Notes: generated from the letters alone by a model not told the origin. DNA of 64,000 nt from an uncultured Alphaproteobacteria bacterium (GCA_944392155.1 CALXVR010000005.1:501-64500); one strand, 5' to 3'; numbered from the stretch's first letter, positions 14,998-60,665 are shown. Numbers and translations are program-made.

Positions 14998-15034
14998 AAT
15001 TAAGAATAATTCTTATAAAATTTCTCCCCTAAAG

Positions 15035-15060
15035 AAAGGCCGCCAGAAGGCGGCCTTTTT
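15035..15060 (+). terminator. Terminator after flgE
   Basis: GGCCGCC-agaa-GGCGGCC-T5. Confidence 0.85.
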
Positions 15061-15183
15061 CTGCATTTAAAAACAAAGCCTTGTGAATATATGTTAATTA
15101 ATCGTTTTAATCTGAAAAAAATTAAGCTAATACATAAAACAAATGGGGAAATGTAGTTATTTATTTATGGATTGGGGAATCTG

Positions 15184-16803: not shown

Positions 16804-16818
16804 GATTGGGATATAAGT

Positions 16819-17841: not shown

Positions 17842-17854
17842 CGGATAAGCGGCG

Positions 17855-18586: not shown

Positions 18587-18932
18587 AAATTTGGAGTTGG
18601 ATGAGTTGAGCGAAAGCGCCGGAATGGACGATGAGCCGATACTCAAAAAAGAAAATTTAGATGATAATTTTGATATTCCGAGTTCAGCGAGCGATTTGGA
18701 AGCGGTATATGACATCCCCGTAAAAGTTTCGGCAATTTTAGGTAAGACTAAAATGAAGGTCAGTCAGCTATTAAAACTAAATAAAGGAGCGATTATAGAA
18801 CTTGACCGCAAAGTCGGAGAAGCAATAGATATTTATGTTAATAATAATTTAGTTGCTCGGGGTGAAGTTGTGGTCGTTGATGATAAACTGGGAATAACAA
18901 TGACCGAAATCGTCAAATCGGTAACCAAATAA
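18579..18932 (+). CDS. fliN: Flagellar motor switch protein FliN
   Basis: DIPVKVSAILG...LDRKVGEAIDIYVNNNLVARGEVVVV. Confidence 0.95.
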   Translation: MSENLELDELSESAGMDDEPILKKENLDDNFDIPSSASDLEAVYDIPVKVSAILGKTKMKVSQLLKLNKGAIIELDRKVGEAIDIYVNNNLVARGEVVVVDDKLGITMTEIVKSVTK

Positions 18933-18943
18933 GGTAAAATACA

Positions 18944-20260
18944 ATGGAATTGTTAATTGTCGGAACATTGGACGGACAAATTGGTGCGGCAAGCAAAATT
19001 GCCATAGCACAAGGCGGTCATGTATCTTTAGCGGACAAGATTGAAACAGCTTTGGATATTCTGCGTTCTGGCAAAAATATAGAATTGGTTATGATTGATG
19101 TTAAACTTGATGTACATAAATTTATTTCAAGTTTAGAAAATGAGCGCATAAATGTTTTGGTCGTAGCCGCAGGTGTCTCCAATGATCCTGCTTTAGCGGT
19201 TAATGCGATTAAGGCCGGTGCGAAGGAGTATATCCCTTTACCTCCTGATCCCGAGCTTATCGGAGCGGTTTTGGCTGCGGCAACAAGAGAAAATCACGCC
19301 CTGATATATGGCGACAAAAAAACGGAACAAGTTTTAAAACTGGCAAAGCAGATTGCTCCGTCCGAGGCCAATGTTTTGCTAACGGGAGAGTCCGGCACCG
19401 GTAAAGAAATTTTCTCTCGTTTCGTGCATGACAATTCCAAAAGAGCAAATAAAAAATTTGTGGCGGTAAACTGTGCTGCCATACCGGAAACCCTGTTGGA
19501 ATCAGAACTTTTCGGTTATGAAAAAGGTGCTTTTACGGGAGCTGTTGCGCGTCGTATAGGCAAGTTTGAGGAAGCCTCCGGCGGAACCTTGCTGTTGGAT
19601 GAAATATCAGAGATGGATATTAGAATTCAGGCAAAACTGTTAAGGGCTATTCAGGAAAAAGAAATAGATCGTATCGGTGGTAAGGCACCCATAAAAGTTG
19701 ATACGAGAATTATTGCCACCTCAAACCGCAATTTGGATGAAGCCGTTAAAAATGGTTCTTTCAGACAAGACTTATATTATCGTCTGAATGTGGTTAATAT
19801 TAATATTCCGCCGTTAAGAGACCGTGTGGACGACATTATTGTCTTAGCTAAGCACTTTGTAAAAAAATATTCTGAGCTCAATGATATTGAGATAAAGCCG
19901 ATAGCCAAATCAGCCGAGGAAAAATTGCTCAATTATTTATGGCCGGGCAATGTCAGAGAATTAGAAAACACGATGCACCGAGCTGTTTTGCTTAGCACGG
20001 GAGAAGAGATAGACGATAATGCAATTATCTTGGATTCTCCGGATTCGGTTATAAACAAGAAAGAAGACGAAGTTATGACCGGAGCAGAATTTGTAGGCAA
20101 TACGGTAGCAAATATGGAGCGCAATTTAATAATTGATACTCTGAAACATACAATGGGCAATCGAACTGTTGCCGCAAATATTCTGGGTATATCGATTCGC
20201 ACGTTAAGAAACAAATTAAAACAGTACGAGAGCGAAGGCTTCAGTATTCCGGAAAATTAG
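18944..20260 (+). CDS. flbD: Sigma54-dependent activator FlbD
   Basis: Receiver-like N-terminus, GESGTGKE, ESELFGYEKGAFTGA, C-terminal Fis-type HTH; conserved fliN-flbD-flhA position. Confidence 0.9.
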   Translation: MELLIVGTLDGQIGAASKIAIAQGGHVSLADKIETALDILRSGKNIELVMIDVKLDVHKFISSLENERINVLVVAAGVSNDPALAVNAIKAGAKEYIPLPPDPELIGAVLAAATRENHALIYGDKKTEQVLKLAKQIAPSEANVLLTGESGTGKEIFSRFVHDNSKRANKKFVAVNCAAIPETLLESELFGYEKGAFTGAVARRIGKFEEASGGTLLLDEISEMDIRIQAKLLRAIQEKEIDRIGGKAPIKVDTRIIATSNRNLDEAVKNGSFRQDLYYRLNVVNINIPPLRDRVDDIIVLAKHFVKKYSELNDIEIKPIAKSAEEKLLNYLWPGNVRELENTMHRAVLLSTGEEIDDNAIILDSPDSVINKKEDEVMTGAEFVGNTVANMERNLIIDTLKHTMGNRTVAANILGISIRTLRNKLKQYESEGFSIPEN

Positions 20261-20280
20261 AATAGGTAATTAAAACAGGT

Positions 20281-22404
20281 ATGGCAAAGAAACCGCAAAA
20301 TAATGCAGCAATGTTCGGCGGCAAATCTTTCAAAGATTTGCTGATATCTTCTACAAAGAGAGGAGATATTTTATTTGCGTTCGGTATTGTCTTGATGTTG
20401 GTCATCTTGATTTTGCCGATGCCTGCTTGGCTGTTGGATATTGCCTTGGCATTATCCATCACGATGGCTTGTATGGTTTTGATGACAGCCATTTTTATTG
20501 AAAAGCCGACCGAGTTTAGTGCTTTCCCATTAGTCTTGCTGATTACGACGATGTATCGTTTGGCGCTGAACTTAGCGTCAACACGTTTGATTCTGTCTCG
20601 AGGCCACTTAGGTCCCAGCGCTGCCGGTGAAGTTATTGAGGCTTTCGGTGGCTTTATCATGGGTAACAGCTTTGTTATCGGTGTAATTGTTTTTGCAATT
20701 TTGGTTATCGTTAACTTCGTCGTCATCACCAAAGGTTCGGGACGTATTGCGGAAGTTGCCGCACGTTTTGCTTTGGACGCAATGCCCGGTAAACAAATGG
20801 CCATAGACGCAGACCTGTCTTCAGGCTTGATTACGGAAGAGGAAGCTCGAGCCAGACGAGAAGATTTAGCCAAAGAAAGCTCTTTCTACGGAGCTATGGA
20901 TGGTGCTTCAAAGTTTGTACGCGGAGATGCGATAGCCGGTTTAATCATTACGTTGATTAATATTGTTGCCGGTATCATTATCGGTATGGTTCAAAATGAT
21001 TTAAGTTTTTCAGAAGCTGCCGAAACTTATACGCGTTTGACGGTTGGTGATGGATTGGTTGCCCAAGTTCCCGCACTGATTATTTCTGTTGCTGCCGGTA
21101 TCTTGGTTTCTAAAGCGGGTATGACTGATGCCACCGATAAAGTTTTGTTTGACCAATTAGCAAACTATCCGAAAGCTCTGGGAATGTCATCATTCTTGGC
21201 TTTGGCTTTAGGAATGTTGCCCGGAACACCTGCTTTCCCGTTTGTTCTGTTAGCCGCCCTGACCGGAGGCACGGCCTACTACCTAAACAAACAACAGCAA
21301 GAGGCTGCCGCGCAAGCACAAGCTGTTATGGAGCAGGAGAAAAAACAAGGAGCAGCAGCAAAGGCCGCAGACGAGCCGATTGCCACAGCTTTAAGAATAG
21401 ACTCAATCCGCCTCGAAATAGGTTATGGTTTGTTACCTTTAATAAATGAAGAAACTAACCGTAAATTAACGGACCAGATTAAGGCCTTGCGCCGTGCTTT
21501 GGCATCAGAGTTAGGCTTTGTTATGCCCTCTATTCGCATTCAGGATAATATGCAACTAGAGGCGAATGAATATAATATTTACATCAAGGAAGTTAAGGCC
21601 GGTAAAGGCGAACTGCGCCCGACACAGCTTTTGGTTATGGACCCGAGAGGTGAGCCGATAACTCTTCCCGGAGAAGCAACGACTGAGCCGACCTTTGGTC
21701 TAAAAGCCATGTGGGTAGACCAGTCATATCGTGAAGAAGCGATGTTTAGAGGTTATACAGTTGTTGATCCGGCAACGGTTGTTACCACGCACATTACTGA
21801 GCTGGTTAAAGATAATATGCCGGAGCTTCTCTCTTATGCCGAAACCCAAAAACTTCTGGATGAGATGGATAAAGACCAACAGAAGTTGGTTAAAGAGCTT
21901 ATCCCAAGCAAAGTCAGCCTTGGCGCGGTTCAACGCATTTTGCAAAATCTGTTGCAAGAAAGAGTTTCTATCAGAGATTTGCCGACTATTTTGGAAGGAA
22001 TATCCGAAGCTGTTTCAACAACCCGCTCTCTGATGATGATAACCGAACACGTAAGAACCCGTTTGGCAAGACAATTATCAAATGCCAATACCAATGAGTT
22101 TGGTGTTATTCCGTTGGTAACTTTATCGCCGGAATGGGAAAGAGCCTTTGCCGAGTCGATTATAGGCGAGGGCGATGAAAGACAACTTGCGATGGCCCCG
22201 ACCGCATTGCAGAGTTTTATTACCAAAGTGCGCAATGTCTTGGAAGATTTGGCCATTAAAGGCGAAACTGCCGTATTGCTTACCAGCCCGGCGATTCGAC
22301 CTTTTGTACGTTCTATTATTGAACGTTTTAGACCTTTAACGGTCGTTATGTCTCAAAACGAGATTCACCCCAAAGCTAAGATTAAAACAGTTGGACAAAT
22401 TTAG
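20281..22404 (+). CDS. flhA: Flagellar export gate protein FlhA
   Basis: RIAEVAARFALDAMPGKQMAIDADL and FYGAMDGASKFVRGDA. Confidence 0.97.
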   Translation: MAKKPQNNAAMFGGKSFKDLLISSTKRGDILFAFGIVLMLVILILPMPAWLLDIALALSITMACMVLMTAIFIEKPTEFSAFPLVLLITTMYRLALNLASTRLILSRGHLGPSAAGEVIEAFGGFIMGNSFVIGVIVFAILVIVNFVVITKGSGRIAEVAARFALDAMPGKQMAIDADLSSGLITEEEARARREDLAKESSFYGAMDGASKFVRGDAIAGLIITLINIVAGIIIGMVQNDLSFSEAAETYTRLTVGDGLVAQVPALIISVAAGILVSKAGMTDATDKVLFDQLANYPKALGMSSFLALALGMLPGTPAFPFVLLAALTGGTAYYLNKQQQEAAAQAQAVMEQEKKQGAAAKAADEPIATALRIDSIRLEIGYGLLPLINEETNRKLTDQIKALRRALASELGFVMPSIRIQDNMQLEANEYNIYIKEVKAGKGELRPTQLLVMDPRGEPITLPGEATTEPTFGLKAMWVDQSYREEAMFRGYTVVDPATVVTTHITELVKDNMPELLSYAETQKLLDEMDKDQQKLVKELIPSKVSLGAVQRILQNLLQERVSIRDLPTILEGISEAVSTTRSLMMITEHVRTRLARQLSNANTNEFGVIPLVTLSPEWERAFAESIIGEGDERQLAMAPTALQSFITKVRNVLEDLAIKGETAVLLTSPAIRPFVRSIIERFRPLTVVMSQNEIHPKAKIKTVGQI

Positions 22405-22415
22405 GGAGATAGGTT

Positions 22416-23372
22416 GTGCGTATTAAGAAGATCACAGCCCCCGATATGCCGACGGCCTTGTCTGTTATTAGAGAGACTTTGGGAGCAGATGCTGTCATTA
22501 TTTCTGAAGAACATAACGCTCAAGGCGAGCTGGAGTTAACCGTTGCGTTGGAAGAAGCGGAAGAAATTTCTTTTGATAAGGAAGAAAAGACAGAAGTCAG
22601 ACAAGCCAAATGGAAATATGATGACGACGCACTGCGCGAAAGCTTAGATTATCATTGTTTGCTGGATGTGGTTAAGGAACGGATTTTAGCTCGTTGCCGC
22701 AAAATAGCCGCAGAAGAAAATATCCGTGGCGATAAAGAGTTATTGGCACAGTGTTTTGCAAAAATGTTTAAGTTTCATGATGTCTTGGATTGCAAACAAC
22801 CGGTCAAAATGTTTATGGGCGTTCCCGGCTCCGGAAAATCTACGGCCATAGCTAAGGTAGCCACTCAGGCCAAGCTGCAAAAGTTAAGCGCCTGCATTAT
22901 CTCAACGGACAATGTCAGGGCCGGAGCCAATAATCAGTTGGAAGCCTTTGCAAATATTTTAGGAACAAATTTTCGTTTTGTAAAAACCCCGCGGGGATTA
23001 TATGACATGGTCGAAGAAGCCAAGCAAAAATATGCTTTGGTTTTGATAGATACCCCCGGAATTAATCCGTTTCTGACTGAAGAAGTTGAAAAAGTAAGCC
23101 TGATGTCTGAAGCTGTGCGTGCTGACATGATTTTAACGATGGATGCCGGTAAAAATACAATGGAAGCAGTAGAAATTGCCGATGTCTTTGCCGAGATTGG
23201 CGCGAAATACTTATTGCCGACAAGGCTGGATTTAACGCGCCGAATTGGTGCGTTATTATCTGTTGCCGCATGTTGCGATTTTGGGTTTTGCGGAGCAAGT
23301 GTTAGCTCAAGCATAGCCAAAGGTTTATCTAAAGTAGATAACACCTCTCTGGCCAAATTGGTTTTGTCCTGA
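22416..23372 (+). CDS. flhF: SRP-family GTPase FlhF
   Basis: MRIKKITAPDM B-domain, GVPGSGKST, DTPG, TRLD. Confidence 0.9.
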   Translation: MRIKKITAPDMPTALSVIRETLGADAVIISEEHNAQGELELTVALEEAEEISFDKEEKTEVRQAKWKYDDDALRESLDYHCLLDVVKERILARCRKIAAEENIRGDKELLAQCFAKMFKFHDVLDCKQPVKMFMGVPGSGKSTAIAKVATQAKLQKLSACIISTDNVRAGANNQLEAFANILGTNFRFVKTPRGLYDMVEEAKQKYALVLIDTPGINPFLTEEVEKVSLMSEAVRADMILTMDAGKNTMEAVEIADVFAEIGAKYLLPTRLDLTRRIGALLSVAACCDFGFCGASVSSSIAKGLSKVDNTSLAKLVLS

Positions 23373-23389
23373 ACGATAGGAGAAAAAAG

Positions 23390-24199
23390 ATGGAAGAAAA
23401 AGTGCAGGAAGAATTACGAATAATGCCGCGAGGCGGAATGCCGAGAGCTGCGCGCAAAGGCCGTAATATGATAGCTGTCGCTTCAGGCAAAGGCGGTGTC
23501 GGAAAAACATGGTTTTCCATTACTCTGGCGCATGCGTTAAGCGGCTTAAGACAAAAAACACTTTTGTTTGACGGTGATTTAGGCTTGGCGAATATAGACA
23601 TACAATTGGGCCTGATGGTTAAGGATGATTTAGGCAGCGTTATCAGTGGAGCCAAAACGCTCAATCAGGTTGTGCACCATTGCGACAAAACGCATTTTGA
23701 CATTATCGCCGGTCGTTCCGGTTCAGCGGGCTTAGCTTCCATGCCGATAGGAAGGTTACAGATTTTAGGTGAAGATTTGTCGCTTTTGGCATCAAATTAT
23801 AATAAGGTTATTCTGGATATGGGCGCCGGAGTAGAAAAGCCTGTGCGTATTTTATCCGGCATGGCAGAGAAAATTATTGTACTTTGCACCGGAGAGCCGA
23901 CATCTTTAACCGATGCCTATGCTTTTATTAAAATAATGGCAATGCAATATCCGAAATGTAATTTAAATGTTGTGATAAATCAGGCAAATTCTGTAAGAGA
24001 GGGACAACGCACTTATGATACTTTGCTTAAGGCTTGCCGTAACTTTTTGAAAATATCGCCGGAGCTTTTAGGCATCATCAGACATGATACAAGAGTGCGC
24101 GATTCTATCCGCAATCAAACCCCGCTGATAAACCGTTATCCAACCTCGGAAGCGGCAGAAGATGTTATAGAGATAGCAAGGAAATTGATAGATGAGTAA
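23390..24199 (+). CDS. flhG: MinD-like ATPase FlhG/FleN
   Basis: SGKGGVGKT, DGDLGLAN, EPTSLTDAYA. Confidence 0.9.
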   Translation: MEEKVQEELRIMPRGGMPRAARKGRNMIAVASGKGGVGKTWFSITLAHALSGLRQKTLLFDGDLGLANIDIQLGLMVKDDLGSVISGAKTLNQVVHHCDKTHFDIIAGRSGSAGLASMPIGRLQILGEDLSLLASNYNKVILDMGAGVEKPVRILSGMAEKIIVLCTGEPTSLTDAYAFIKIMAMQYPKCNLNVVINQANSVREGQRTYDTLLKACRNFLKISPELLGIIRHDTRVRDSIRNQTPLINRYPTSEAAEDVIEIARKLIDE

Positions 24200-25799
24200 T
24201 GTTATTCCGCCACTGAACACGCCGCAAATAAGCACGCCGACAACAGACAAACCCATCACCGGCAGCATAGAAAATTTGGGCGGACAGTTAGGCGGAGAAA
24301 GTATTACCGTAGGACAAAGCGCGATGTTGGAGGTTCTATCTTCAGCCAAGCAAAATGCCTTAAAAAACTTTTCGGGCACAATCAGCCTAACCATCAACAA
24401 CCAACTTGTAAAAATTCCCGTCGAACTGAAGTTAGATATCCCCATCAAACTTCCTTCAGCCATGCCGACGGATAATCTGGAATTAAAACTGCAGCCGCAA
24501 AAAGACGGGACTATTGCGGTCAAGCTTGTGTCGGTAAACAACGAAAACCCGACAAAATTTATTGTACCACAAACCGAAAATTTGCCTAAAGGCGAAATGG
24601 CTCAAGCCGTTATTAAGGATACAAACGCCAAACTTCCGCCGATGGAAACCACACCTTTAAGAGCGGAAAATGTACTTGAAAAAATGGCAACGGAGTTAAA
24701 AATTCCACAAGCCAAAGTTCAGCCCTTGTTACAAGAATTTGCCAATCTGTCCTCGCGTGTCTCTGTCAGCTTGCAACCCCAACAAGCATCCGAAATGCCA
24801 CAGCCAAATCTTAAGCCGCAAGTTATAAATATTCAAAACATATTAAAAGCATTCGGTGAGGGAAAAATTAATCTGCAAGAAGCCGTAGGGCAGATTAAGA
24901 CAGAATTAAGCGGTTTAAGAGGTCAGACCTTTGTTGTGCCGAGTGAAGTTAGACCGGATAATGGTATGGTCTTGCTCAAAACACCTTTGGCAGAGCTTCC
25001 GCTGAATAATCCGCCCAAGCTGGGCAATGGTCTGCCTTTGCTGTTGGAAATAGAGGGTTTTGAGGAAGTATTGCCCAAATTAACCGAGGCTTTAACGGAA
25101 CAAACTTCGGTTACGCATAATGTTACCAAAAATGCCGTGCCGGATAATATTATGAAGATTCTAAAGCCTCTGATTAACGCCGGACAGCAGGAATTAGCAG
25201 CGGCTGTATTAAATAAAATTCCTGAGCCGTCATCTCCGAAGATGTTGGCCAATATGGTGTCATATATCAAAGCCGGAAGTGAACATAATTTAAGCAAATG
25301 GTTAGGTTCGGAGATTGTTGATAAACTAAGCGCCACCAAAGAGGGCAGAGAGGTTGTCGCCAAATTGGGAACAATGTTTGTCTCTTCCAATCAGGATGGT
25401 ATAAATTGGCGGATTATGGAAGTCCCCGTACTTAATGGGCAGGCAATTAATAAAATCAGAATAGCCGTCAAAAAAATTCTGGATGAGGAAGAAAAGAAAA
25501 AACGCAAAGAAAACAGATTATATGGCACGCGTTTTGTGGTGGATACCAACTTCAGCCGTTTAGGCTCTTTCCAGTTTGATGGTTTTGCCTTGGCTAAAGA
25601 TAAAAGGTTTGACTTGGTGATTAGAACCGAGCGTGAAATAGATTCTGATTTCTGCGCCAACATTATGCGTTTGTTTAAGAATACGTTATATGAGGAAGGA
25701 TATTCCGGTAACGTTAAAATTAATGTTAAAGAAAAGTTTATTAAAGTATGCGAAGATAACGCCGAGAATGAAATTTTAGCAGACGGAATTTTCATATGA
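24192..25799 (+). CDS. Hypothetical protein with a FliK-like C-terminal domain
   Basis: Pro-rich N-terminal region; C-terminal RFVVDTNFSRLGSFQFDG...FDLVIRTE; overlaps the flhG stop. Confidence 0.5.
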   Translation: MSNVIPPLNTPQISTPTTDKPITGSIENLGGQLGGESITVGQSAMLEVLSSAKQNALKNFSGTISLTINNQLVKIPVELKLDIPIKLPSAMPTDNLELKLQPQKDGTIAVKLVSVNNENPTKFIVPQTENLPKGEMAQAVIKDTNAKLPPMETTPLRAENVLEKMATELKIPQAKVQPLLQEFANLSSRVSVSLQPQQASEMPQPNLKPQVINIQNILKAFGEGKINLQEAVGQIKTELSGLRGQTFVVPSEVRPDNGMVLLKTPLAELPLNNPPKLGNGLPLLLEIEGFEEVLPKLTEALTEQTSVTHNVTKNAVPDNIMKILKPLINAGQQELAAAVLNKIPEPSSPKMLANMVSYIKAGSEHNLSKWLGSEIVDKLSATKEGREVVAKLGTMFVSSNQDGINWRIMEVPVLNGQAINKIRIAVKKILDEEEKKKRKENRLYGTRFVVDTNFSRLGSFQFDGFALAKDKRFDLVIRTEREIDSDFCANIMRLFKNTLYEEGYSGNVKINVKEKFIKVCEDNAENEILADGIFI

Positions 25800-26980
25800 G
25801 CAAGATAGAAAACAAAACATTTTCTTTTGATCCCTTAGGTTATTATGCCATTTTGGGCGTGGCATATAATGCCGGAGAGGAAGAGATAAAGCAAAATTAT
25901 CGTGAGCAAGCCAAAGTTTTGCACCCGGATCGCAATCCTGATGAAAATGCTTTGGAGAAGTTTCAAAAATTATCCGTAGCTTACGATGTGTTAAAAGATG
26001 AAACTTCACGTCTGATATATGATTTGATGGCGCAGGCTCACCCGAAAGAGAGCTTCCCGGATATCAATGCCCTAAAGGCGTATAAAAATCGCAGCGGAGA
26101 GGAAGATATAAGTGTCCGAGCTTTGGTTTTGCGACAAGTAACTGGAAAAATAATCAAATTTTCAGATGTCGAAAATTATGAAATTTGCAATTTTAAAGAG
26201 GCGCAAACTGCCGTCTTGTTAGCATCTGTTTCCAATTGGGTTTTGGGTTGGTGGCACCCCAAAGCTTTTGGAAGAAACGTGCTGGCCTTAATTGAAAATA
26301 TTAAAGGGATTAATGCCAATCGTCAGGACAACTTTACTCTGCTTGCACATAATGCGGTGGCTTATTGGGAAGATGGCAAAAAAGAGCCGGCGTTGTTATC
26401 CGCTTTGCAGGCCGGAGCCTATGCCAACGCTTATCAAAGATCATTGTTAAATAAATTTATAGCAATGCTGAATATCAGAACATCAGCTAAAATTCCATTA
26501 TGGAAATGGGGACGTTTAAAGGCTATTCAGCTGATAATTCCTTTTTCGCTGGTTCTCGCTGTTTTATTTTCATTAAGCAGTAAGGTCGTAACAGATTCTG
26601 AGCTGGCAAAATATTTTGCTAAGAAGAATGAAATAACCTATTTTCAGCAAGTCCAGTTCCGTACCGGCGGAGAGACGGTGGATGATATGGTGGTGGGAAG
26701 AATTATAGATTTACCTCCGGATCCGGAAGATACAAGGCTTTTATATCATACAACAACGGAAGTCAAAGCCATGTACGGTCCTTCTGACAATTTTGATGTT
26801 ATGACAACTCTGAAACCTCGGCAAACAGTGCGCATGACAGGATATTCTCCTGATAACATCTGGTACAGAGTACAAATTGACAACGGTGAAATGGGTTTTG
26901 TTCGAGCAGAGTTTTTAAAAAAAGGTATCGGAGCCAAAATTCCTGATGGTAGCAAAGTTTATACCGGACCTGAACTCTGA
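25796..26980 (+). CDS. J-domain membrane protein with a C-terminal SH3b domain
   Basis: YYAILGV...HPDRN J-domain, GWW membrane segment, TM helix, GPSDNFDVMTTL...WYRVQIDNGEMGFV SH3b. Confidence 0.8.
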   Translation: MSKIENKTFSFDPLGYYAILGVAYNAGEEEIKQNYREQAKVLHPDRNPDENALEKFQKLSVAYDVLKDETSRLIYDLMAQAHPKESFPDINALKAYKNRSGEEDISVRALVLRQVTGKIIKFSDVENYEICNFKEAQTAVLLASVSNWVLGWWHPKAFGRNVLALIENIKGINANRQDNFTLLAHNAVAYWEDGKKEPALLSALQAGAYANAYQRSLLNKFIAMLNIRTSAKIPLWKWGRLKAIQLIIPFSLVLAVLFSLSSKVVTDSELAKYFAKKNEITYFQQVQFRTGGETVDDMVVGRIIDLPPDPEDTRLLYHTTTEVKAMYGPSDNFDVMTTLKPRQTVRMTGYSPDNIWYRVQIDNGEMGFVRAEFLKKGIGAKIPDGSKVYTGPEL

Positions 26981-43211: not shown

Positions 43212-43877
43212 TTATAGTAAATCGTAAATGTTTTTTTTGCTCTTAAGTATATTTCGTATCTCATTAATATCGCCATCAGAACAAAATCCTTGATTTATTA
43301 GAGCATCTAAAACTCTATTATCAGTTTTTTTTGTGTCAGCATATTTAATGGCACGGGCAAAATAAACATAATTAGACTTATTTTGTTCTCCGATTAAAAT
43401 TTCATCAGATGGAATCATCATAATAATTTCGGGTTGGTCAGTAGCAATAGCAAGATCTGTTATTGTCATTCCCTTAGCTAAGACATCAAGATTAGCTCCT
43501 TTTCCTATCAAAAATTTGGCAATTTCAGGTTTTTTAATGAATATGGCCAACTGGAGCGGCGTATTTCCGCCATGGAGCGGACTATCAATATCAATATTGT
43601 TTTTTAAGAAAAAATCTATGACTTCAATCGGGTTTGGCGCATTAATTAAAGCTGCTTCAAAATGGTTAGTTTTATAATAAAAATCACTTTTAGTAATATT
43701 CATTGGATTATAACCATTTTCTAGCATATCAGACATTGTTTGAATGTCGCCGTTATCTGCGGCTTGATTAAATTTCCACCAAGACCAATAAGAAATGTTA
43801 AAAACAAGATTAGCCAAAAGCCAAACAATAAAACAGCCGCCCAGAATAAGTCCGAAATATTTGAAAAACTTTTTCAT
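43212..43877 (-). CDS. Ankyrin-repeat protein with an N-terminal anchor
   Basis: GNTPLQLAI...AKFLIGKGANLD, GMTITDLAI; AT-rich sequence. Confidence 0.8.
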   Translation of the reverse strand: MKKFFKYFGLILGGCFIVWLLANLVFNISYWSWWKFNQAADNGDIQTMSDMLENGYNPMNITKSDFYYKTNHFEAALINAPNPIEVIDFFLKNNIDIDSPLHGGNTPLQLAIFIKKPEIAKFLIGKGANLDVLAKGMTITDLAIATDQPEIIMMIPSDEILIGEQNKSNYVYFARAIKYADTKKTDNRVLDALINQGFCSDGDINEIRNILKSKKNIYDLL

Positions 43878-43968: not shown

Positions 43969-44047
43969 AAATACACTAAGAGCAAGTGACAAAAGAACAA
44001 TATCAAAAATTTTTCAAATTGTCAAGGATTATATTCCTAAAATATCC

Positions 44048-53681: not shown

Positions 53682-56132
53682 ATGAAAAAACTGTTAAGTC
53701 TTTTACTTGTTGCTCTATTGGTTAATGTTTCCGGAGCATTTGCGGCGGACAAAACTTCGGTTGATGCCGTAACCGAACTGGTGGATGTCTACAATACACC
53801 GGAAATAAACTATCCCAAAACAAGTAAAAAACTGCAGCAGATAGAGGAAATGCTTAAAAGCGGTCAGGTTTCCATTAAGCAGATGTCTGAAGAAGTCAGC
53901 TTTTTGGATGAAACCAGAGGGAAACTTATGGTCGCCCGCAAAAGCATAGAACAAGAACTAACCTTTGTTCAAAAGAGAATAGAGGCTTTGGGAACGGCGC
54001 CGGAGGATGGCAGTCAAGAATTAAAAGTCATTGCTCAGAAAAGAGAGGAGTTTGGTAAAGAAGAAGCCTATCAAAAAGGCAAACTTGCGGAAGCAGATGT
54101 CTTGCTGACCAAAATAGATGAGTTGAATGCTCTTATTTTAGACATCCGTAACAAGGAGCTTTTGGGTAGTTTGCTAACCAAACAAACGCCGCTTTATTAT
54201 CCGAGTGTTTTGTTAGGGGCTTCCAAGCAGTTTATGGAATTTGTTTTTGACATCATACGTTCGCCTGTTTTGTGGTATGGAGAGCTAAATGCGGAGCAAC
54301 GCGAATTTGTCAAATCAAACACCATTCCGGTTGGTTTCACGGTTCTGTTTTCTTTGTGGTTTGGTATTTGGCTGCGCTTGTTCATTATGCGTCGTTTTGG
54401 CTACAAAAAGGAAGAAGAACACCCGAGATACGGTAAAAAAGTTTTTGCTGCTGTTTTTGTGGCAATCGCTTATGGCGTTATTCCATCCTCAATCATCATA
54501 GGTTTTCTGGTATGGATAATTAGTACCAAGGTTTTGACTATTGGTTTTTTTGGTCTGACATTAGCCAGCTTTTTGTATTATTCTTTGTTTGTTATTATGG
54601 CTGCTGCATTTTCGCGCGTAACTTTTGCACCATATAACGAAAAATGGCGCTTGGTAAATATCAGCAATGACAAAGCCAAACGCATAACCAAAGCCTTATA
54701 TTTCAGTGCCTATGCCATCGGTATTGCCTCATTTCTGGAGCATGTTGCTGTAACAGCCAATTATGGTTTGGAGCTAAACTATTTCATAACCGTATTATCA
54801 AGCGCTGTGAAGGCCTTCTGCATTATCTTGATTGTAAAAAGAGTCATCTGGGATGATGAGATGGTGCAAGATGATATTGCCGATGAAACATCAGAAACGG
54901 AAGAAGACGAGGGATTAAGCCCCGCATTTAAAATTACGTTTTTTGTATCATTGTTCGCAGCCGGCGTCTTCTTAATCTCAGTCATCGGATATCCGAAACT
55001 CTCGGCCTTTATCTTAGACAGATCTATTTTGACAGCCATCGTCATAGGATTTTTTATAGTTTTGCGCAAAGCTCTATCAGAGGTTATGCATCGTGTTTTG
55101 ATGTTGCGCTTTTGGGTTAAGACCTTTAAGATGCGTCGGCGTATGCTTTCCAAGATAGACTTTTGGATGAGCTTGATAATTGACCCCATGTTGGTTTTGT
55201 TGGTGGCTTTTGTATTGCTGTCGCTCTGGGGTGTCTCAACAGATTTATTGTTGCGTAGTATCAAAAAGCTGTTTTTTGGCTTTCAGGTCGGTGGTGTCAA
55301 TATATCCTTAATTGCCATAATCTTTGCTATATTGGCATTCTTTATCTCTTTGGCAGCCGTAAAAGCATTAAGAGGACGTTTGGTCAATAATGTTCTCGCA
55401 AAGATGGATATTGATGATGGTATCAAGCATTCATTGTCATCAGGTTTTAGCTTTGTAGGCTTTATTCTGGCGGCCATTATCGCCATCACTGTAATGGGCG
55501 GAAACTTATCCAATCTGGCCTTGATTGCATCAGCCTTATCCGTTGGTATCGGTTTTGGTTTGCAGAACGTAATTAACAACTTTGTATCAGGTATTATCAT
55601 TTTGTTTGAGCGTCCGTTCAAGGTAGGCGATTGGGTAATCGTAAACAATGAGGAAGGGCGAATTAAGCAGATAAACATTCGCTCAACCGAGATAGAAACT
55701 TTCAAGAAGACAAGTATTATCATACCGAATGCAACGCTGATTTCAAATTCCGTAACAAACTTGACCCACGGCAATAATTGGTCCCGTCAGTCTGTAACGG
55801 TAGGCGTTGCCTATGGTACGGATGTAGATAAGGTAAAGCAGATTTTGCTTGAGTGTGCGGCAAAATGCAAATATGTTTTGAAAAACCCCGCACCTTATGT
55901 CTTGTTTAAAGATTTTGGTCCGTCTAGCTTAGACTTTGAGGTCAGATGTTATACCAATGATATCTGGAATGGTTGGATAATCCCGAGTGATTTAAGAACT
56001 GAGATTAATAGACGTTTTATAGAAGAGGGAATAGAAATACCGTTCCAGCAGATGGTTATTCACCAAGGCGAGAAGGTTGCACCTGAGGAACAGTTCTATG
56101 CCAAAAGAAAAGTTAAGAAAGAAGAAAAGTAA
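53682..56132 (+). CDS. Large MscS-family mechanosensitive channel
   Basis: Periplasmic coiled coil, many TM helices, SALSVGIGFGLQNVINNFVSGIIILFERPFKVGDW. Confidence 0.92.
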   Translation: MKKLLSLLLVALLVNVSGAFAADKTSVDAVTELVDVYNTPEINYPKTSKKLQQIEEMLKSGQVSIKQMSEEVSFLDETRGKLMVARKSIEQELTFVQKRIEALGTAPEDGSQELKVIAQKREEFGKEEAYQKGKLAEADVLLTKIDELNALILDIRNKELLGSLLTKQTPLYYPSVLLGASKQFMEFVFDIIRSPVLWYGELNAEQREFVKSNTIPVGFTVLFSLWFGIWLRLFIMRRFGYKKEEEHPRYGKKVFAAVFVAIAYGVIPSSIIIGFLVWIISTKVLTIGFFGLTLASFLYYSLFVIMAAAFSRVTFAPYNEKWRLVNISNDKAKRITKALYFSAYAIGIASFLEHVAVTANYGLELNYFITVLSSAVKAFCIILIVKRVIWDDEMVQDDIADETSETEEDEGLSPAFKITFFVSLFAAGVFLISVIGYPKLSAFILDRSILTAIVIGFFIVLRKALSEVMHRVLMLRFWVKTFKMRRRMLSKIDFWMSLIIDPMLVLLVAFVLLSLWGVSTDLLLRSIKKLFFGFQVGGVNISLIAIIFAILAFFISLAAVKALRGRLVNNVLAKMDIDDGIKHSLSSGFSFVGFILAAIIAITVMGGNLSNLALIASALSVGIGFGLQNVINNFVSGIIILFERPFKVGDWVIVNNEEGRIKQINIRSTEIETFKKTSIIIPNATLISNSVTNLTHGNNWSRQSVTVGVAYGTDVDKVKQILLECAAKCKYVLKNPAPYVLFKDFGPSSLDFEVRCYTNDIWNGWIIPSDLRTEINRRFIEEGIEIPFQQMVIHQGEKVAPEEQFYAKRKVKKEEK

Positions 56133-56173
56133 TGCTTGCAAAATAAAAAAAGCGTGATAAAAAAGTAAGCGTT

Positions 56174-56244
<71 letters not shown>

Positions 56245-56249
<5 letters not shown>

Positions 56250-56287
56250 CTAAAAAAGCCTCCCCTGTGGAGGCTTTTTTAGTGGTG
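56245..56287 (+). terminator. 19-bp perfect inverted repeat/terminator overlapping the tRNA 3' end
   Basis: CACCACTAAAAAAGCCTCC-cctgt-GGAGGCTTTTTTAGTGGTG. Confidence 0.8.
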
Positions 56288-56325
56288 ATGATAATAAAGA
56301 CTGCTCAAACTATGTAAGACATAAG

Positions 56326-56355
56326 AAAAAAGCGGTTGAAAATCAGCCGCTTTTT
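56326..56355. terminator. Second hairpin terminator, probably ending ORF 56984
   Basis: A5-AGCGGTTGA-aaa-TCAGCCGCT-T4. Confidence 0.7.
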
Positions 56356-56375
56356 GTGTTTCTTAGTGAACCTTT

Positions 56376-56984
56376 TTAAGGGATAGTTTCAAGAAGATTA
56401 TCAACAGCTTCTGTCTGCCTTGAGTTATTTTTGTATTCATACAATGATAAAATTGCATCGTCGCAAAAATGTGATCCAAGCAGATCTACAATATCCCCTT
56501 TTTGTGTTGCAGCCAATTTGCTGACAAAATCTCCGGGAACCCTAAAGGCAACAAAACTTGTGCCAGTTCCTTTAATCAAGCAAAAATAAAAATCTTGCGG
56601 AATATAGTGCCTATTCAAAATCTCAAAAGGCATATGTATAAGCATGATCTCATCAACCGCGTAATCATATACGGCCAAATTTTTGCTCAAGTTTACATTT
56701 TTCCATTTAACGGAAAGGTTTCGGCACTTTTCAACACCCAAAACACGAGATCTCGGATATATGCTGATAAGTGTTACAAGCAATTTATCGCCTTTTTTAG
56801 CTAATAAAAAATTAGATAAATCATTCATCTTTACGGCGCATCTAAAAACCTTGTTGTCCGAGGTTAAGATGTCACAGCAAAAAGGGAATTCTTGGGTGCC
56901 ACAATATTCGCAATGAATTTTTTCAACACAAAACCGCAAATAATATACATTTTCGCTTTTGCTAAAAAAATAAATTGTTTTCAT
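56376..56984 (-). CDS. AT-rich hypothetical protein with an internal duplication
   Basis: Two ...KGD...-ending beta-rich repeats; no family recognised. Confidence 0.6.
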   Translation of the reverse strand: MKTIYFFSKSENVYYLRFCVEKIHCEYCGTQEFPFCCDILTSDNKVFRCAVKMNDLSNFLLAKKGDKLLVTLISIYPRSRVLGVEKCRNLSVKWKNVNLSKNLAVYDYAVDEIMLIHMPFEILNRHYIPQDFYFCLIKGTGTSFVAFRVPGDFVSKLAATQKGDIVDLLGSHFCDDAILSLYEYKNNSRQTEAVDNLLETIP

Positions 56985-57073
56985 AAGCGTAAAGTTTAAA
57001 ATATTAATAATAGAATTTTTTATACTTGTTTTGTATGTTATAAAATACTTTTTGTCAAATTTAATTTATTTAG

Positions 57074-57106
57074 AAAAAAAGCTCTGAAAGCCGAAGCTTT
57101 CAGAGC
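57074..57106 (-). terminator. cUUCGg-loop terminator after ORF 57699
   Basis: Minus strand GCTCTGAAAGC-TTCG-GCTTTCAGAGC-T7. Confidence 0.88.
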
Positions 57107-57120
57107 CAGGAGTTTAAACG

Positions 57121-57699
57121 TTAAGATAGGAAACATATATATAATCCGAGGCCGAGGTAAAAACCAAAGACATATTCACCCCAGTTCCACCCCTCTTTGC
57201 CTAAAGCATAATAATTTTCCAGTTTGGAGCCGAGCCAATAGCAAGGTCCCATTCCCAGCCCCCAAAACATAAAGCTTACGGATTGCGCGGCTAGCCCCAT
57301 TAAAAAAGTCAGAATAAGACCTGTCAAACAAGTTCCGATAAAACCAAATATTTTGGGATATTCACTCAGGTAGACCACATTCCCTTTGACGGAAATGCGT
57401 AGCGGCATGAGCAAATCATCAATCAATTCGCATTCCTTATCAACATTTGGGTCAACCTCTTTGCCGTTATAAATGCGTGAGGCATAAACACCCCAGCCAT
57501 AAAGCTGATAACCTGCATAAGCAGCTACAAAAGTTGTTAAGGCCAAATCAAAAGAGAAGCCTTCCGCTAAACAAATAATAATACTGAAGAAGACCGCATA
57601 CCAAATTTTGTTAAGCGGCAATTTTTTGTTGCCGAAACGTAATCCGCCGCGGACTCTCCACAGAAAGGAAGAGATAAATGTCACCAATACAATATACAT
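57121..57699 (-). CDS. Multi-pass membrane hypothetical protein
   Basis: Several TM segments, Gly/Trp-rich (LWRVRGG, GWNWGEYVFG). Confidence 0.7.
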   Translation of the reverse strand: MYIVLVTFISSFLWRVRGGLRFGNKKLPLNKIWYAVFFSIIICLAEGFSFDLALTTFVAAYAGYQLYGWGVYASRIYNGKEVDPNVDKECELIDDLLMPLRISVKGNVVYLSEYPKIFGFIGTCLTGLILTFLMGLAAQSVSFMFWGLGMGPCYWLGSKLENYYALGKEGWNWGEYVFGFYLGLGLYICFLS

Positions 57700-57933
57700 T
57701 CAGAATGTCCTTTTTTACAATTAAAGACAGAATTATGGATAGCATATAAAACTTAAGTTGTCAAGGATAAAATTCCTATTTTAGGATAAAAAGCCTTGAC
57801 AAGGATTGTTTTTTGTAGTAAGAGCAAAATATCACTAACCATAACTGTAACCAAAAAGCGGCGGATTCTTCCGCTGTTTTTTTTTGTATAACTTGGCAGG
57901 CTGTAAGGCTTGCCATTTTTTTTAGGAACAACA

Positions 57934-58140
57934 ATGCAAAAGATAATTTTAATTTTATCCGCCGCCGCTCTTGTTTGTATTTTGTTTTACAAGTTAGGGC
58001 AGGGGCGATGTCAGGTTGAAACATTAGTCAAAGAAAAGGAGGTCATCAGGTATGTTGAAAAGCAAAAGTCGGATATTTATTCTCGTCCTAATGCCAATCG
58101 GACTGAGTTGCTTGAGCTCATGCGCAACAACAAACTATAA
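57934..58140 (+). CDS. Putative i-spanin (Rz-like)
   Basis: N-terminal TM helix, charged helical periplasmic part; AGGA RBS; 3' end overlapped out of frame by a lipoprotein ORF. Confidence 0.65.
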   Translation: MQKIILILSAAALVCILFYKLGQGRCQVETLVKEKEVIRYVEKQKSDIYSRPNANRTELLELMRNNKL

Positions 58141-58279
58141 TCTATGCCCGCAATATCCCATAGCCGGAGAAAAAGTTGCTTCAGAGCTTGAGAAGATTCC
58201 CGCAAAAGACTTGGAGGCAACTTGGGAGTGGCTGGGCAGAATCAACAAGTTGCGCCAAGAACTGGAAATTTGTCGTTAA
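58052..58279 (+). CDS. Putative o-spanin (Rz1-like lipoprotein)
   Basis: Starts inside the preceding gene in the +1 frame; lipobox LSSC; CPQYP; short mature peptide. Confidence 0.7.
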   Translation: MLKSKSRIFILVLMPIGLSCLSSCATTNYNLCPQYPIAGEKVASELEKIPAKDLEATWEWLGRINKLRQELEICR

Positions 58280-58343
58280 CATTCAAGATTGAAAAAACAG
58301 TGATGATGATTATTTGTATAGCCTAGATTAAAAGGAGGAAGAT

Positions 58344-58754
58344 ATGAAAAAAGTATTTCTTGTTTGTGGCGCGATTTTGTTATTACAAGCCTGTGCAACG
58401 GAGGCTAAATATGATAAAAAATTGCAGTCAATGGTGGGTAAGCCCGAATCTCAGCTGATAGCAGAATGGGGAGCTCCGAGTGCTGCAAAAATTTTGAATA
58501 ATGGCGAGCAAGTCATAACCTATACTCAGGCTAATGATATGTATGTCCCCTCAGAATATTACATCTATAATACGACGGGAGCAGAACCGAGTGAAACCGT
58601 CTTATACTCACCTTTTATGGATGACTACGACTTTGGTCCCTACAACCAGACTTTTGGCTATGAAGTAGAAGAGGTTTGCCAAACATCATTTTACATCAAA
58701 GAAGGTATTGTCAGCGGTTGGAAGTGGAAGGGAAACAACTGTGTGTCAAACTAG
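58344..58754 (+). CDS. Hypothetical lipoprotein
   Basis: AGGAGG RBS; lipobox LQAC; MVGKPESQLIAEWGAP motif. Confidence 0.8.
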   Translation: MKKVFLVCGAILLLQACATEAKYDKKLQSMVGKPESQLIAEWGAPSAAKILNNGEQVITYTQANDMYVPSEYYIYNTTGAEPSETVLYSPFMDDYDFGPYNQTFGYEVEEVCQTSFYIKEGIVSGWKWKGNNCVSN

Positions 58755-58961
58755 TTTGGCTTTGCCGAATGTAAGCAGCCAAGGAGTCGTGCTTGGCTGT
58801 TTTTTTATCTGTTAAAATATCATTAAAGGAGCCAAAAATAAAAAAATTAAAGATAAGCTCAAAAGAATTTTCCGTAACCAATTTTTAACTTAAATATGTT
58901 GCAATTTTCTCATGTTGCACAAGGTGTCGGAGTCATAATTTTTATAAGGTGTGGAAAAACA

Positions 58962-59285
58962 ATGGGCTTATTCTTAGAATTAACAAACAAAATTAAAAAC
59001 TCTGGATTTCTGATTCTTTGTGTGTTGTTGTTTTTCTACTTCAGCTTTTATACCATCAATGGCGAGCGTGGTTTGCTTAAGTACATGTATTTGAGCAAAG
59101 AAATAGCTTATGCCAAAGATATTGCGGCACAATACAGCGCGCAAAAACAAAAACTGGAAGCCAAAGTTCGCTTATTATCATCATCCAGCTTGGATTTGGA
59201 TATGTTGGATGAAAGAGCTCGCGTTGTTCTAAATTTTGCCGGAGATGATGAGTTTGTTATTTTAGATGATTTTGAAAATAATTAG
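58962..59285 (+). CDS. ftsB: Septum formation initiator FtsB/DivIC
   Basis: TM, GERGLL, coiled coil, SLDLDMLDERARVVLN. Confidence 0.88.
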   Translation: MGLFLELTNKIKNSGFLILCVLLFFYFSFYTINGERGLLKYMYLSKEIAYAKDIAAQYSAQKQKLEAKVRLLSSSSLDLDMLDERARVVLNFAGDDEFVILDDFENN

Positions 59286-59390
59286 TCTCGGAAAATCAAG
59301 TATTTTCAAGGCATAAACTCGCATTTGGGATAACTGGATAAAAAAAGCTGTATTTTTTAAATTTTATTTGCTATACAATATGTTGCTAAA

Positions 59391-60665
59391 TTGATTGATA
59401 ACAATTTAATGTCTCGGTGTGCCCGAGCGGGAACTTGGATGAATATAGGTAACGATAGCATTCCGCCGCATATGCAATATACGGAAAAAAAGCCGTTATT
59501 CTCGGAGAAAGAGATTATCTTCCGAGGATCTGGTTGTGCTAAGGTATGGAAAATTTCTTCCCGAGCTCAAGTCATAGTTTTTATGGCTTTGTTATTAATC
59601 AGTTCTTGGTGCTTTTATTCTTACTATCTATACAATAAATCAGGTCACATTATTTCTTACAAAGAACGAGAATTAGATGAAACTAGGGATGCCTATGTTG
59701 AATTAATGACTGATTTTGTGACCTTGCACAAAAATATTGGAGCCATGATAAGCTCTATCGGCGAAGGTAAAGGCAAAGATAATAAAAAATTTGATCAATA
59801 TAAGCGCCAAGCGCAGATGGTTGAAGATAAAATTAAACAAATTACGGATGAAAAAGATTGGTTAAGCTCAGAAACAATTTCAGAAAGAGCCTCGTTAAGT
59901 GAAGCTCTTTTACAAAGAGATATTATTGCTTCTGAGCGAGATGCTTTGAAAAAACAGATTAATGAGCTGGAAGAAACCATTAAAGATATAAAAAAGGCAG
60001 AAATGGAGGTCCTTGAGCGCATAGACGGTGTTGCAGACAAGGAGATAAGTAAAATAAAATCAGCTATCAATTCCATCAATCAAGCCTTAAAAAGCAAAGG
60101 TTTGTATTTTAATGCCTTAGCCAATTCAAAACGCAAAAACAACAGCGGCGGTCCATATATCCCGGATCGCCGTAATTTGGTAAAAGATAAAAAAATCGAC
60201 GATAAAATTTCCGCAATTTTCAAAAACTACGATGACTTAGAGTATTATAAAGAAGTTGTACAATATATTCCGATGGGTAAACCCGTATGGAGTTATTGGG
60301 TAACATCCCAATATGGCACTCGTTCAGATCCGTTTAATGGCAAAAGAGCTCGTCATAAAGGAATGGATTTAGCCAGCCGAACAGGAAACAAAATCAAAGT
60401 AAAAGCCAAAGGCAAAGTAACCAGAGCAGAGTTCGCCGGCGGTTACGGAAACCTTGTGGTGGTTGACCATGGTAATGGTTTTCAAACAAAATATGCACAT
60501 ATGCATAAAATCTATGTTAAAAAAGGCCAATATGTGGAGTATGATGACACATTAGGAGAGGTTGGCAGCACCGGCCGATCAACAGGCCCTCATTTACACT
60601 ACGAAGTTTTGTATATGGGAAAGAATGTTGACCCGATGCCGTTCTTGAAAGCTAAAATATCTTAA
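59391..60665 (+). CDS. Membrane-anchored coiled-coil M23 endopeptidase (LmdC-like); exact start uncertain
   Basis: TM, long coiled coil, HKGMD and HLH zinc motifs; directly upstream of a bactofilin. Confidence 0.9.
   Translation: MIDNNLMSRCARAGTWMNIGNDSIPPHMQYTEKKPLFSEKEIIFRGSGCAKVWKISSRAQVIVFMALLLISSWCFYSYYLYNKSGHIISYKERELDETRDAYVELMTDFVTLHKNIGAMISSIGEGKGKDNKKFDQYKRQAQMVEDKIKQITDEKDWLSSETISERASLSEALLQRDIIASERDALKKQINELEETIKDIKKAEMEVLERIDGVADKEISKIKSAINSINQALKSKGLYFNALANSKRKNNSGGPYIPDRRNLVKDKKIDDKISAIFKNYDDLEYYKEVVQYIPMGKPVWSYWVTSQYGTRSDPFNGKRARHKGMDLASRTGNKIKVKAKGKVTRAEFAGGYGNLVVVDHGNGFQTKYAHMHKIYVKKGQYVEYDDTLGEVGSTGRSTGPHLHYEVLYMGKNVDPMPFLKAKIS

Follow-up and report, generated by a model that had tools for sequence, protein, structure and literature searches.

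What does a spanin do for a bacterial cell when no phage lysis cassette surrounds it? The question is raised by a stretch of 64,000 nucleotides (nt) from an uncultured gut alphaproteobacterium (GCA_944392155.1 CALXVR010000005.1:501-64500; hereafter the window, in which positions are counted from the first nucleotide), where two overlapping open reading frames (ORFs), ORF A and ORF B, at positions 57,934 to 58,279 have the layout of the inner-membrane (i-spanin) and outer-membrane (o-spanin) subunits of a two-component spanin. Spanins are normally seen only within phage lysis cassettes, whereas this pair is cassette-less, fixed in the chromosome and selected across genera, and so makes a natural case for that question. 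The full explanation that we favor, at a probability of roughly 0.55, assigns to the pair the outer-membrane step in a T7-like particle and lysis system that is domesticated and dispersed.

ORF A encodes 68 amino acids (aa) and ORF B encodes 75 aa in the +1 frame, the two overlapping by exactly 89 nt. The hydropathy of ORF A peaks at 3.15 over residues 4-18 (Kyte-Doolittle(15)), the remainder of the protein being charged, and AlphaFold2 (AF2), used with the family alignment, predicts helices at residues 2-50 (continuous) and 56-64, with a mean predicted local distance difference test score (pLDDT) of 81; we infer a single N-terminal transmembrane (TM) domain with type II topology. The C-terminal motif of ORF A in the family alignment is RPNAxRxELLxLMR, and its Cys26, found in the genus, is unconserved across the wider family. 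ORF B bears the lipobox L-S-S-C, whose Cys24 is invariant in 31 sequences, and two further near-invariant cysteines, Cys32 and Cys74; the residue at +2 after the lipobox cysteine is Ala, i.e., not Asp, the +2 sorting rule being one drawn from E. coli. From the family alignment AF2 gives ORF B a signal helix followed by helices at 40-47 and 55-70 (pLDDT 72). The Shine-Dalgarno sequence of ORF B, a perfect AAGGAGG, falls in the ORF A codons K-E-V of an EVIRYV motif conserved in the family alignment, and the ORF B start ATG straddles the ORF A Tyr and Val codons. An earlier note on this DNA had described a 68-aa gene with one N-terminal TM helix and a charged helical body, overlapped for 89 bp in the +1 frame by a 75-aa LSSC lipoprotein with later Cys residues, and both halves of this description are borne out. 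An anchored helical subunit with a +1-frame lipoprotein over its 3′ part is also the arrangement of overlapped two-component spanins such as P2 LysB/LysC and the prototype, lambda Rz/Rz1 (SpaninDB, PMC6139136).

The decisive evidence for spanin identity is the context of the family in phage lysis cassettes. Forty-six IMG/VR contigs, many of them 38-46 kb long and from uncultured phages, encode a relative of ORF B; ORF A is present in 44, with an overlap type that is almost always identical, and an endolysin lies directly upstream of the pair (within about 2 kb) in 39. These endolysins belong to three unrelated types (PF00959 lysozyme, SleB/Hydrolase_2 and a 148-aa phrog_873 protein) and usually have a holin-like membrane protein ahead of them. 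Between endolysin and pair, 14 of the 46 contigs carry a homologue of the 192-aa polytopic membrane protein that is the divergent neighbor of the pair in the window, and two carry a different, 187-aa protein; the window's 192-aa protein shows no significant BLASTP similarity to this 187-aa occupant of the equivalent slot, and the two are treated as positional alternatives, not as homologues. The phage homologues of the pair end a cassette of holin, endolysin and multi-TM protein, as in P2, whose lysis genes are ordered Y-K-lysA-lysB-lysC, and the slot of the 192-aa protein corresponds to the position of LysA. In the phages of loci L039-L041 (Lnnn being compared loci), which lack the ORF A/B family, the same slot is taken by a classical, non-homologous pair in which the gene of a 76-aa lipoprotein overlaps that of a 91-aa TM coiled-coil protein; it follows a 195-aa membrane protein, and a 192-aa-type gene adjoins the lysozyme there. 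One 41.5-kb phage has a small gene inserted between ORF A and ORF B, which shows the two to be independent genes and turns the overlapped architecture into a separated one.

Separated variants were seen in L037 (16475-16663, minus strand; the same as L073) and in L081, the insert being 62 aa long and DNA-binding-like. The 192-aa protein has 141 homologues, many on contigs of ~40 kb, and matches no Pfam or PHROG family; in L036-L038 (10001-10576) a homologue lies inside the baseplate module of ~41-kb myovirus-like phages, between the spike/Apex and sheath-initiator genes, and thus outside the lysis cassette.

Comparison with spanin databases, which the earlier note had envisaged, gave a divided answer. 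Neither ORF A nor ORF B matches Pfam. The window's ORF B matches phrog_456 'Rz-like spanin' weakly, as do 13 of 31 ORF B homologues (best E 1.2e-4, a weak value), and 6 of 20 ORF A homologues match phrog_1026 'Rz-like spanin' (best E 1.6e-4, equally weak), others matching five further Rz-like families; these repeated matches, together with the slot downstream of three unrelated endolysin types, support the spanin layout that had been proposed. On the other hand, no curated spanin was matched significantly, and none of ORF A, ORF B and the 192-aa protein had a tblastn match among 50,697 GenBank phage records. Unlike the P2 and lambda spanins, the pair, at 68 + 75 aa, reaches only about half the customary size, shows no significant similarity to curated families, has an ORF B with three Cys that is predicted to be partly helical, and lies outside any cassette. 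SpaninDB does list small spanins in Brucella phages Bk and F1, with an i-spanin of 69 aa, an o-spanin of 73 aa and an 83-nt overlap, which its curators flag as unusually small (PMC6139136). These mini-spanins resemble the pair in their near-equal sizes, overlap and frame, in their alphaproteobacterial hosts and in o-spanin cysteines near both mature ends, but differ in that profile comparison by hhalign gave probabilities of 11% and 27%, which are not significant, and in that the Brucella genes lie in lytic phages and not in a chromosome. Since no GenBank phage relative and no significant homology to the Brucella mini-spanins were found, the pair represents a new sequence family within a known spanin type. 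With both frames open, the family occurs in 92 of 151 genomes of the bacterial family, at 133 places in GTDB species representatives and on the 46 IMG/VR viral contigs, a recurrence far beyond chance. We hold with high confidence that the two ORFs form a two-component spanin of phage ancestry.

In the chromosome, the pair belongs to an island between tRNA-Thr(CGT) and ftsB made of four units: a 202-aa ORF and the 192-aa gene, both on the minus strand, the pair, and a 136-aa lipoprotein gene. No holin, endolysin, capsid or integrase gene lies between the tRNA and ftsB, as the earlier note had said; one correction is that the 192-aa neighbor of the pair is itself a phage gene associated with lysis cassettes. 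The locus is found in chicken-gut runs, and relatives of the lineage are labelled 'uncultured Alphaproteobacteria/Azospirillum sp.'; G000 denotes the genome carrying the window, and G001-G006, G016, G018, G021, G022 and G055 the compared genomes of its family. The pair sits at the same site in all seven species genomes of the genus, as well as in G018 and G055 of a second genus, in the order MscS, tRNA-Thr, variable cargo, pair, surE (in two genomes), lipoprotein and ftsB, and in the eight syntenic genomes measured (G055 not among them) ORF A is always 68 aa long and the overlap always 89 nt. The cargo includes a 202-aa ORF (window and G004) or a 338-aa ORF (G001 and G005), with the 192-aa gene; in G006 it is a block of five glycosyltransferase/epimerase genes, and the second genus has a MutY-like gene instead; neither an integrase nor an att repeat was found at the variable cargo sites of the window, G001-G006, G018 and G055. 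Variable cargo between tRNA and pair fits an integration hot spot with a stable distal end, and two further genes upstream of the pair that are common to G002, G003 and the second genus argue for one ancient insertion. The best reading is that the pair derives from the distal end of a ~40-kb prophage integrated near tRNA-Thr, whose holin and endolysin have since been lost.

When ORF A and ORF B were concatenated and placed in a tree with phage and prophage copies, the seven copies of the genus formed a single clade (support 98/97) whose branching mirrors host divergence; those of the second genus branch off close by, with a long branch, a position compatible with one origin. Ratios of nonsynonymous to synonymous substitution (dN/dS; Nei-Gojobori, reference G000), the values being somewhat confounded by the 89-nt overlap, are 0.17-0.25 for ORF A, 0.10-0.23 for ORF B and 0.01-0.04 for core neighbors. 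Flanking core genes are saturated in the more distant genomes (proportion of synonymous differences, pS, ~0.8) and both frames of the pair are still open, an intactness that argues against decay independently of the dN/dS estimate. Comparison of synteny and dN/dS across related genomes, as the earlier note had suggested, finds conserved ORFs at the same site in nine genomes, and ratios of 0.10-0.25; the intact frames that the note had reported in the window are found in the genus and in the second genus. Its suggestion of a minimal prophage remnant is right as to origin, given the tRNA-Thr-adjacent site and variable cargo; a remnant in decay does not fit the vertical inheritance, intact frames and purifying selection. 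The pair is inherited vertically under purifying selection through at least one genus, and probably two, and its long-term retention in the lineage is highly likely.

A candidate lysis system for the pair lies elsewhere in G000. A tblastn search with genes of related prophages found a SleB-type hydrolase on contig C7 and no other prophage of that type. The hydrolase belongs to a T7-like cluster that starts with an S24/helix-turn-helix (HTH) repressor on the minus strand, a 109-aa ORF, a 139-aa ORF, a 103-aa ORF resembling the small terminase subunit (TerS) and a T7-like large terminase subunit (TerL), continues with a lysis part (85-aa TM protein, SleB/Hydrolase_2 endolysin, shortened PF11351 'GTA_holin_3TM' homologue, 63-aa ORF) and ends with PF12236 portal, PF05396 scaffold, PF19821 capsid, tail tubular A and B and two small ORFs. 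The holin homologue is full length and above the Pfam threshold for PF11351 in other genera. The cluster contains no polymerase, integrase, other replication or fiber gene, and a lipobox scan of it for an in-cis o-spanin returned only a 43-aa ORF (LTSC) embedded in the tubular A gene, which is unconvincing. Across at least nine genera, clusters of the C7 type agree in gene order and in the host genes on either side; they occur in 42 of the 151 family genomes, with a capsid identity (74-100%) above that of MscS. The cluster looks like a domesticated T7-type element akin to gene transfer agents (GTAs). In several genomes the capsid gene has one in-frame TAA.

The pair is tied to this cluster by a shared leader. 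In all nine syntenic genomes ORF A is preceded by a TTGACA promoter, a 20-nt element (consensus ATCACTTGCnnnWAGTGTAT) around the site where transcription presumably begins, a T-run hairpin and a ribosome-binding site; the hairpin keeps its position in the nine genomes and its stem sequences differ. A search of G000 for the sequence pattern TTGACA-N17-TAnnnn, ATCACTTGC-TATAAG-TGTAT, hairpin and T-run gave ten sites. One heads the structural operon of the T7-like cluster (C7:16186), where the leader is conserved in G002, G006, G018, G022, G016 and G021. Another heads a three-gene operon on contig C4 that looks like the missing fiber of the cluster: its first gene encodes 320 aa with a T7-tail-fiber-type N-domain (phrog_1640, E 7e-18; PF03906 below threshold), and the other two a Gly-rich 216-aa protein (tail-fiber-assembly PHROG) and a 133-aa protein. 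Leader-linked fiber operons are also present in G006, G016 and G022. Of the 151 family genomes, those with the T7-like capsid gene have two or more copies of the motif in 25 of 42 cases and those without it in 4 of 109 (Fisher 1.5e-13), and the element is absent from all phage and prophage loci examined. In G016, which is of another genus and has the T7-like cluster without the ORF A/B family, the leader precedes a non-homologous unit (L187) in which a 101-aa TM coiled-coil protein with Rz-like PHROG matches is overlapped by a 63-aa lipoprotein (lipobox AVCSC), by its genes a putative spanin unit that is independent and convergent.

Upstream of the pair, the dyad shared with the divergent 192-aa gene contains two AGGAWAAAWnCCT repeats. 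A repeat just upstream of the -35 box, AGGAATAAATTCCT, is also found at the fiber and ankyrin promoters and may be an activator site.

Because the pair, the T7-like cluster and the fiber operon have the leader in common, the likeliest role of the pair is the outer-membrane lysis step upon induction of the element; the suggestion in the earlier note of a partner to a lysis system encoded elsewhere fits best, the C7 cluster having an endolysin and a holin, no spanin, and the shared leader. Once the T7-like element is induced, the C7 holin would open the inner membrane and the SleB endolysin degrade the wall, both acting in trans. ORF A, anchored in the inner membrane, and ORF B, an outer-membrane lipoprotein, would bridge the periplasm via their C-termini, by analogy with Rz/Rz1, and would fuse or disrupt the outer membrane after wall degradation. 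All leader-linked units would be gated at the leader, either by terminator read-through of the Q type, with the TATAAG-like hexamer as pause site, or by a repressor that sits on the CACTT-N5-AAGTG dyad until it is released, the cluster having an S24 repressor gene beside it. The arms CACTT and AAGTG of the element are conserved and do not covary, which fits an RNA hairpin or a DNA operator alike. Two candidate regulators upstream of the T7-like operon, orf109 and orf139, have no Pfam, PHROG or PDB sequence match and no detectable family, and no Q-like antiterminator protein was identified. Going further, it may tentatively be proposed that uncultured gut Alphaproteobacteria possess a so far undescribed system, GTA-like or tailocin-like and derived from a podovirus (T7-like), of which the pair is one module; its parts (head-tail cluster with endolysin and holin, fiber operon, spanin pair, polymorphic 'MSNLIQYI' family and membrane proteins) would lie at no fewer than ten chromosomal loci behind one leader, to be read through only on induction.

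Several observations weigh against the role in a T7-like system proposed here. Runs X8 and X12, labelled 'METAGENOMIC RNA-Seq', gave over 55800-59800 contigs of 5-12 kb with flat depth over genes and spacers, and their longest records reach 91-160 kb; the libraries are DNA-like and uninformative on transcription. The element in the window, ATCACTAACCATAACTGTAA, is eroded, differing at 4 of 16 specified positions (leave-one-out profile E = 0.6), so that the link to the leader rests on a promoter in exact register with the other leader copies, on the terminator and on the orthologous elements of G003 (20/20) and G006 (19/20). The ORF A/B family is present in 20 of 42 genomes with the cluster vs 72 of 109 without, i.e., it shows no enrichment, because most copies are prophage-borne, and 22 cluster-bearing genomes lack the family. 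In G022, no leader-linked spanin was found at any of the three motif sites, and the spanin may therefore be dispensable. The leader also stands ahead of the ankyrin and 'MSNLIQYI' genes, which have no obvious lysis role. These caveats of transcription, erosion, enrichment, G022 and non-lysis genes set the figure given above. In addition, the periplasmic parts are short (~46 residues in ORF A, ~52 in ORF B), and no significant similarity to curated spanins was found by tblastn against GenBank phages or by profile comparison with Brucella phage Bk. A family-wide co-occurrence of ORF A/B and the T7-like cluster was rejected on the same counts; only the syntenic, leader-linked copies track the cluster.

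It is unlikely, if conceivable, that the pair is kept for a host function apart from the T7-like element, such as outer-membrane vesicle release, envelope remodelling or an abortive-infection or exclusion device that hastens lysis upon infection by related phages, with the leader marking a general accessory-gene regulon. Purifying selection and vertical inheritance show only a benefit to the host or to a resident element, many genomes with the T7-like cluster lack the ORF A/B family, and the leader precedes the ankyrin gene and 'MSNLIQYI' genes with peptidoglycan-hydrolase-like or toxin-like C-domains; however, the motif is tightly associated with the cluster and heads its structural operon and the tail-fiber operon, and G016 has independently placed a different spanin pair behind the leader. 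A lone spanin, moreover, is not expected to be active while the peptidoglycan is intact, as judged from lambda biology (PMC6139136).

That the pair is a phage-derived TM protein and lipoprotein other than a spanin (e.g., a lysis-timing regulator or a superinfection exclusion system), merely placed at the cassette end, is quite improbable. PHROG matches with a best E of about 1e-4, no GenBank phage match, a profile comparison with the Brucella phage Bk spanins that fell short of significance, a very short ORF A and an ORF B predicted to be partly helical, unlike the proline-rich Rz1, would all suit such a protein, but a classical spanin pair fills the exact slot where ORF A/B is absent, SpaninDB lists spanins of 69 and 73 aa in Brucella phages, and the architecture, lipobox, periplasmic Cys and +1 overlap agree with the SpaninDB definitions; no other spanin candidate was noticed in these cassettes, where no systematic search was made. 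Very improbable, finally, is an inert prophage fossil yet to decay, or a pair repeatedly re-seeded by phages at the tRNA-Thr site. The family is very common in prophages of the bacterial family (92/151 genomes), many proviral contigs carry the pair at the very tip of the element, and here it is tRNA-adjacent, next to variable cargo and, in the window's subclade, behind an eroded element. Set against this are identical boundaries in the eight measured syntenic genomes (68 aa, 89 nt, leader and terminator), a monophyletic clade that mirrors the hosts, dN/dS well below 1 vs saturated synonymous sites in neighbors, the two extra upstream genes common to G002, G003 and the second genus, and no duplicated tRNA-end repeat at 56100-59000.

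Under the explanation preferred here, the system would have its nearest parallels among GTAs. RcGTA of Rhodobacter capsulatus has been called a 'multilocus genome' (PMC5026251), and its release is of the classical holin-endolysin kind (PMC13236601). Like RcGTA, the present system comprises a domesticated head-tail cluster with accessory lysis and fiber functions at other loci, which are co-regulated in RcGTA and would be so here, and the holin of the T7-like cluster is of PF11351, a family that takes its name from GTA release. Unlike RcGTA, which is siphovirus/HK97-like, the cluster is T7-like in its portal, scaffold, capsid and tail tubular proteins. An RcGTA spanin locus has, to our knowledge, not been reported. 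A two-component spanin is a requirement of T7-like phages, and T7 encodes gp18.5/gp18.7 beside its terminase genes; in contrast, the T7-like cluster has no in-cis spanin, and its candidate partner is of other phage ancestry and on another contig. No T7-like or podovirus-derived GTA was found in the literature searched, and GTAs have so far reportedly been classified formally into three families. As for regulation, Q-type antitermination by BrrG controls BaGTA in Bartonella, and antitermination is documented for the Caulobacter GTA as well (bioRxiv 10.1101/2024.11.20.624540). The leader shares with Q-type circuits a promoter, an early-transcribed element with a -10-like hexamer (TATAAG/TAGTAG) and a terminator before late genes, and with the BaGTA/BrrG circuit the tying together of loci of different phage origin, but no antiterminator is identified here, and the S24-type repressor encoded next to it might just as well use the palindromic element as its operator.

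The novelty of the locus is twofold, lying in a chromosomally fixed, cassette-less yet maintained spanin pair and in its apparent recruitment into a multilocus T7-like regulon. Through the shared leader, the pair is connected with a T7-like cluster that is inherited vertically and would represent a new GTA-like type of podovirus origin; the leader also points to a terminator-gated regulon like those of BaGTA and the Caulobacter GTA. Guts of humans, poultry and ruminants commonly harbor the lineage, and such an element could matter there for gene flow or bacterial antagonism. The coordinates of the pair, its leader and the related loci are collected in Table 1.

Table 1. Features of the spanin-like locus and of the loci compared with it (window positions unless a contig is named).
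Feature	Position	Strand	Remarks
ORF A, i-spanin-like, 68 aa	57934-58140	+	N-terminal TM helix, charged helical periplasmic part
ORF B, o-spanin-like lipoprotein, 75 aa	58052-58279	+	+1 frame relative to ORF A
Shine-Dalgarno AAGGAGG of ORF B	58037-58043	+	Within ORF A, 8 nt before ORF B start; read from sequence
Leader of pair	57796-57850	+	TTGACA 57796-57801, -10-like TAAGAG 17 nt downstream, 20-nt element ATCACTAACCATAACTGTAA 57831-57850
Two intrinsic-terminator-like hairpins with T-runs	57853-57925	+	57853-57882 and 57894-57915, between element and ORF A start
Dyad TTGTCAAGG...CCTTGACAA	57758-57802	.	Back-to-back TTGACA -35 boxes of pair and divergent 192-aa gene
Polytopic membrane protein, 192 aa	57121-57699	-	Divergent neighbor of pair; lysis-cassette-associated phage gene
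Cys-rich ORF, 202 aa	56376-56984	-	Cargo directly after tRNA-Thr; also in G004
tRNA-Thr(CGT)	56174-56249	+	Same place in all syntenic genomes; likely integration hot spot bounding variable island
MscS	53682-56132		Flanking gene
Lipoprotein, 136 aa	58344-58754		phrog_3716, E 4e-11
ftsB	58896-59285		Flanking gene
Second element copy in window, GTCACTTGCTCTTAGTGTAT	43971-43990	-	Same promoter and terminator, upstream of ankyrin gene
Ankyrin-repeat protein, 221 aa, membrane-anchored	43212-43877	-	Inserted after ftsI in dcw region
T7-like cluster, ~12 kb	G000 C7, about 14650-26300		Locus L042 = C7:13001-28000
Tail-fiber operon, three genes	G000 C4:19007-21117	-	Leader element at C4:21117
'MSNLIQYI' family	G000 C8:26868-27457, C29:21253-21947, C50:26-1018, C50:1994-2935, C23:28564-29707		Each behind leader
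L187, non-homologous spanin unit	G016:C6:18200-21400		Behind leader; 182-aa homologue of 187-aa phage protein, E 7e-10, first

Further flanking genes of the island encode an M23 peptidase and bactofilin. An Rfam scan of 56000-59400 matched the tRNA alone, the leader fitting no known RNA family, and a search of 56100-59000 for att-like direct repeats of the tRNA-Thr 3′ end gave none that was convincing. In G000 the leader also precedes four paralogous 'MSNLIQYI' proteins and two further units. The 'MSNLIQYI' family has the N-terminus MSNLIQYIxQDDPEEELKK and variable C-domains (VgrG3-like_C/GH46, E 4e-19; pesticin-like; PG_binding); its genes are often followed by a small multi-TM gene, a layout that resembles polymorphic effector/immunity pairs, and a module of this type (L192) includes the two extra genes that precede the spanin pair in G002, G003 and the second genus. 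In G016, two ankyrin genes stand behind the leader element.

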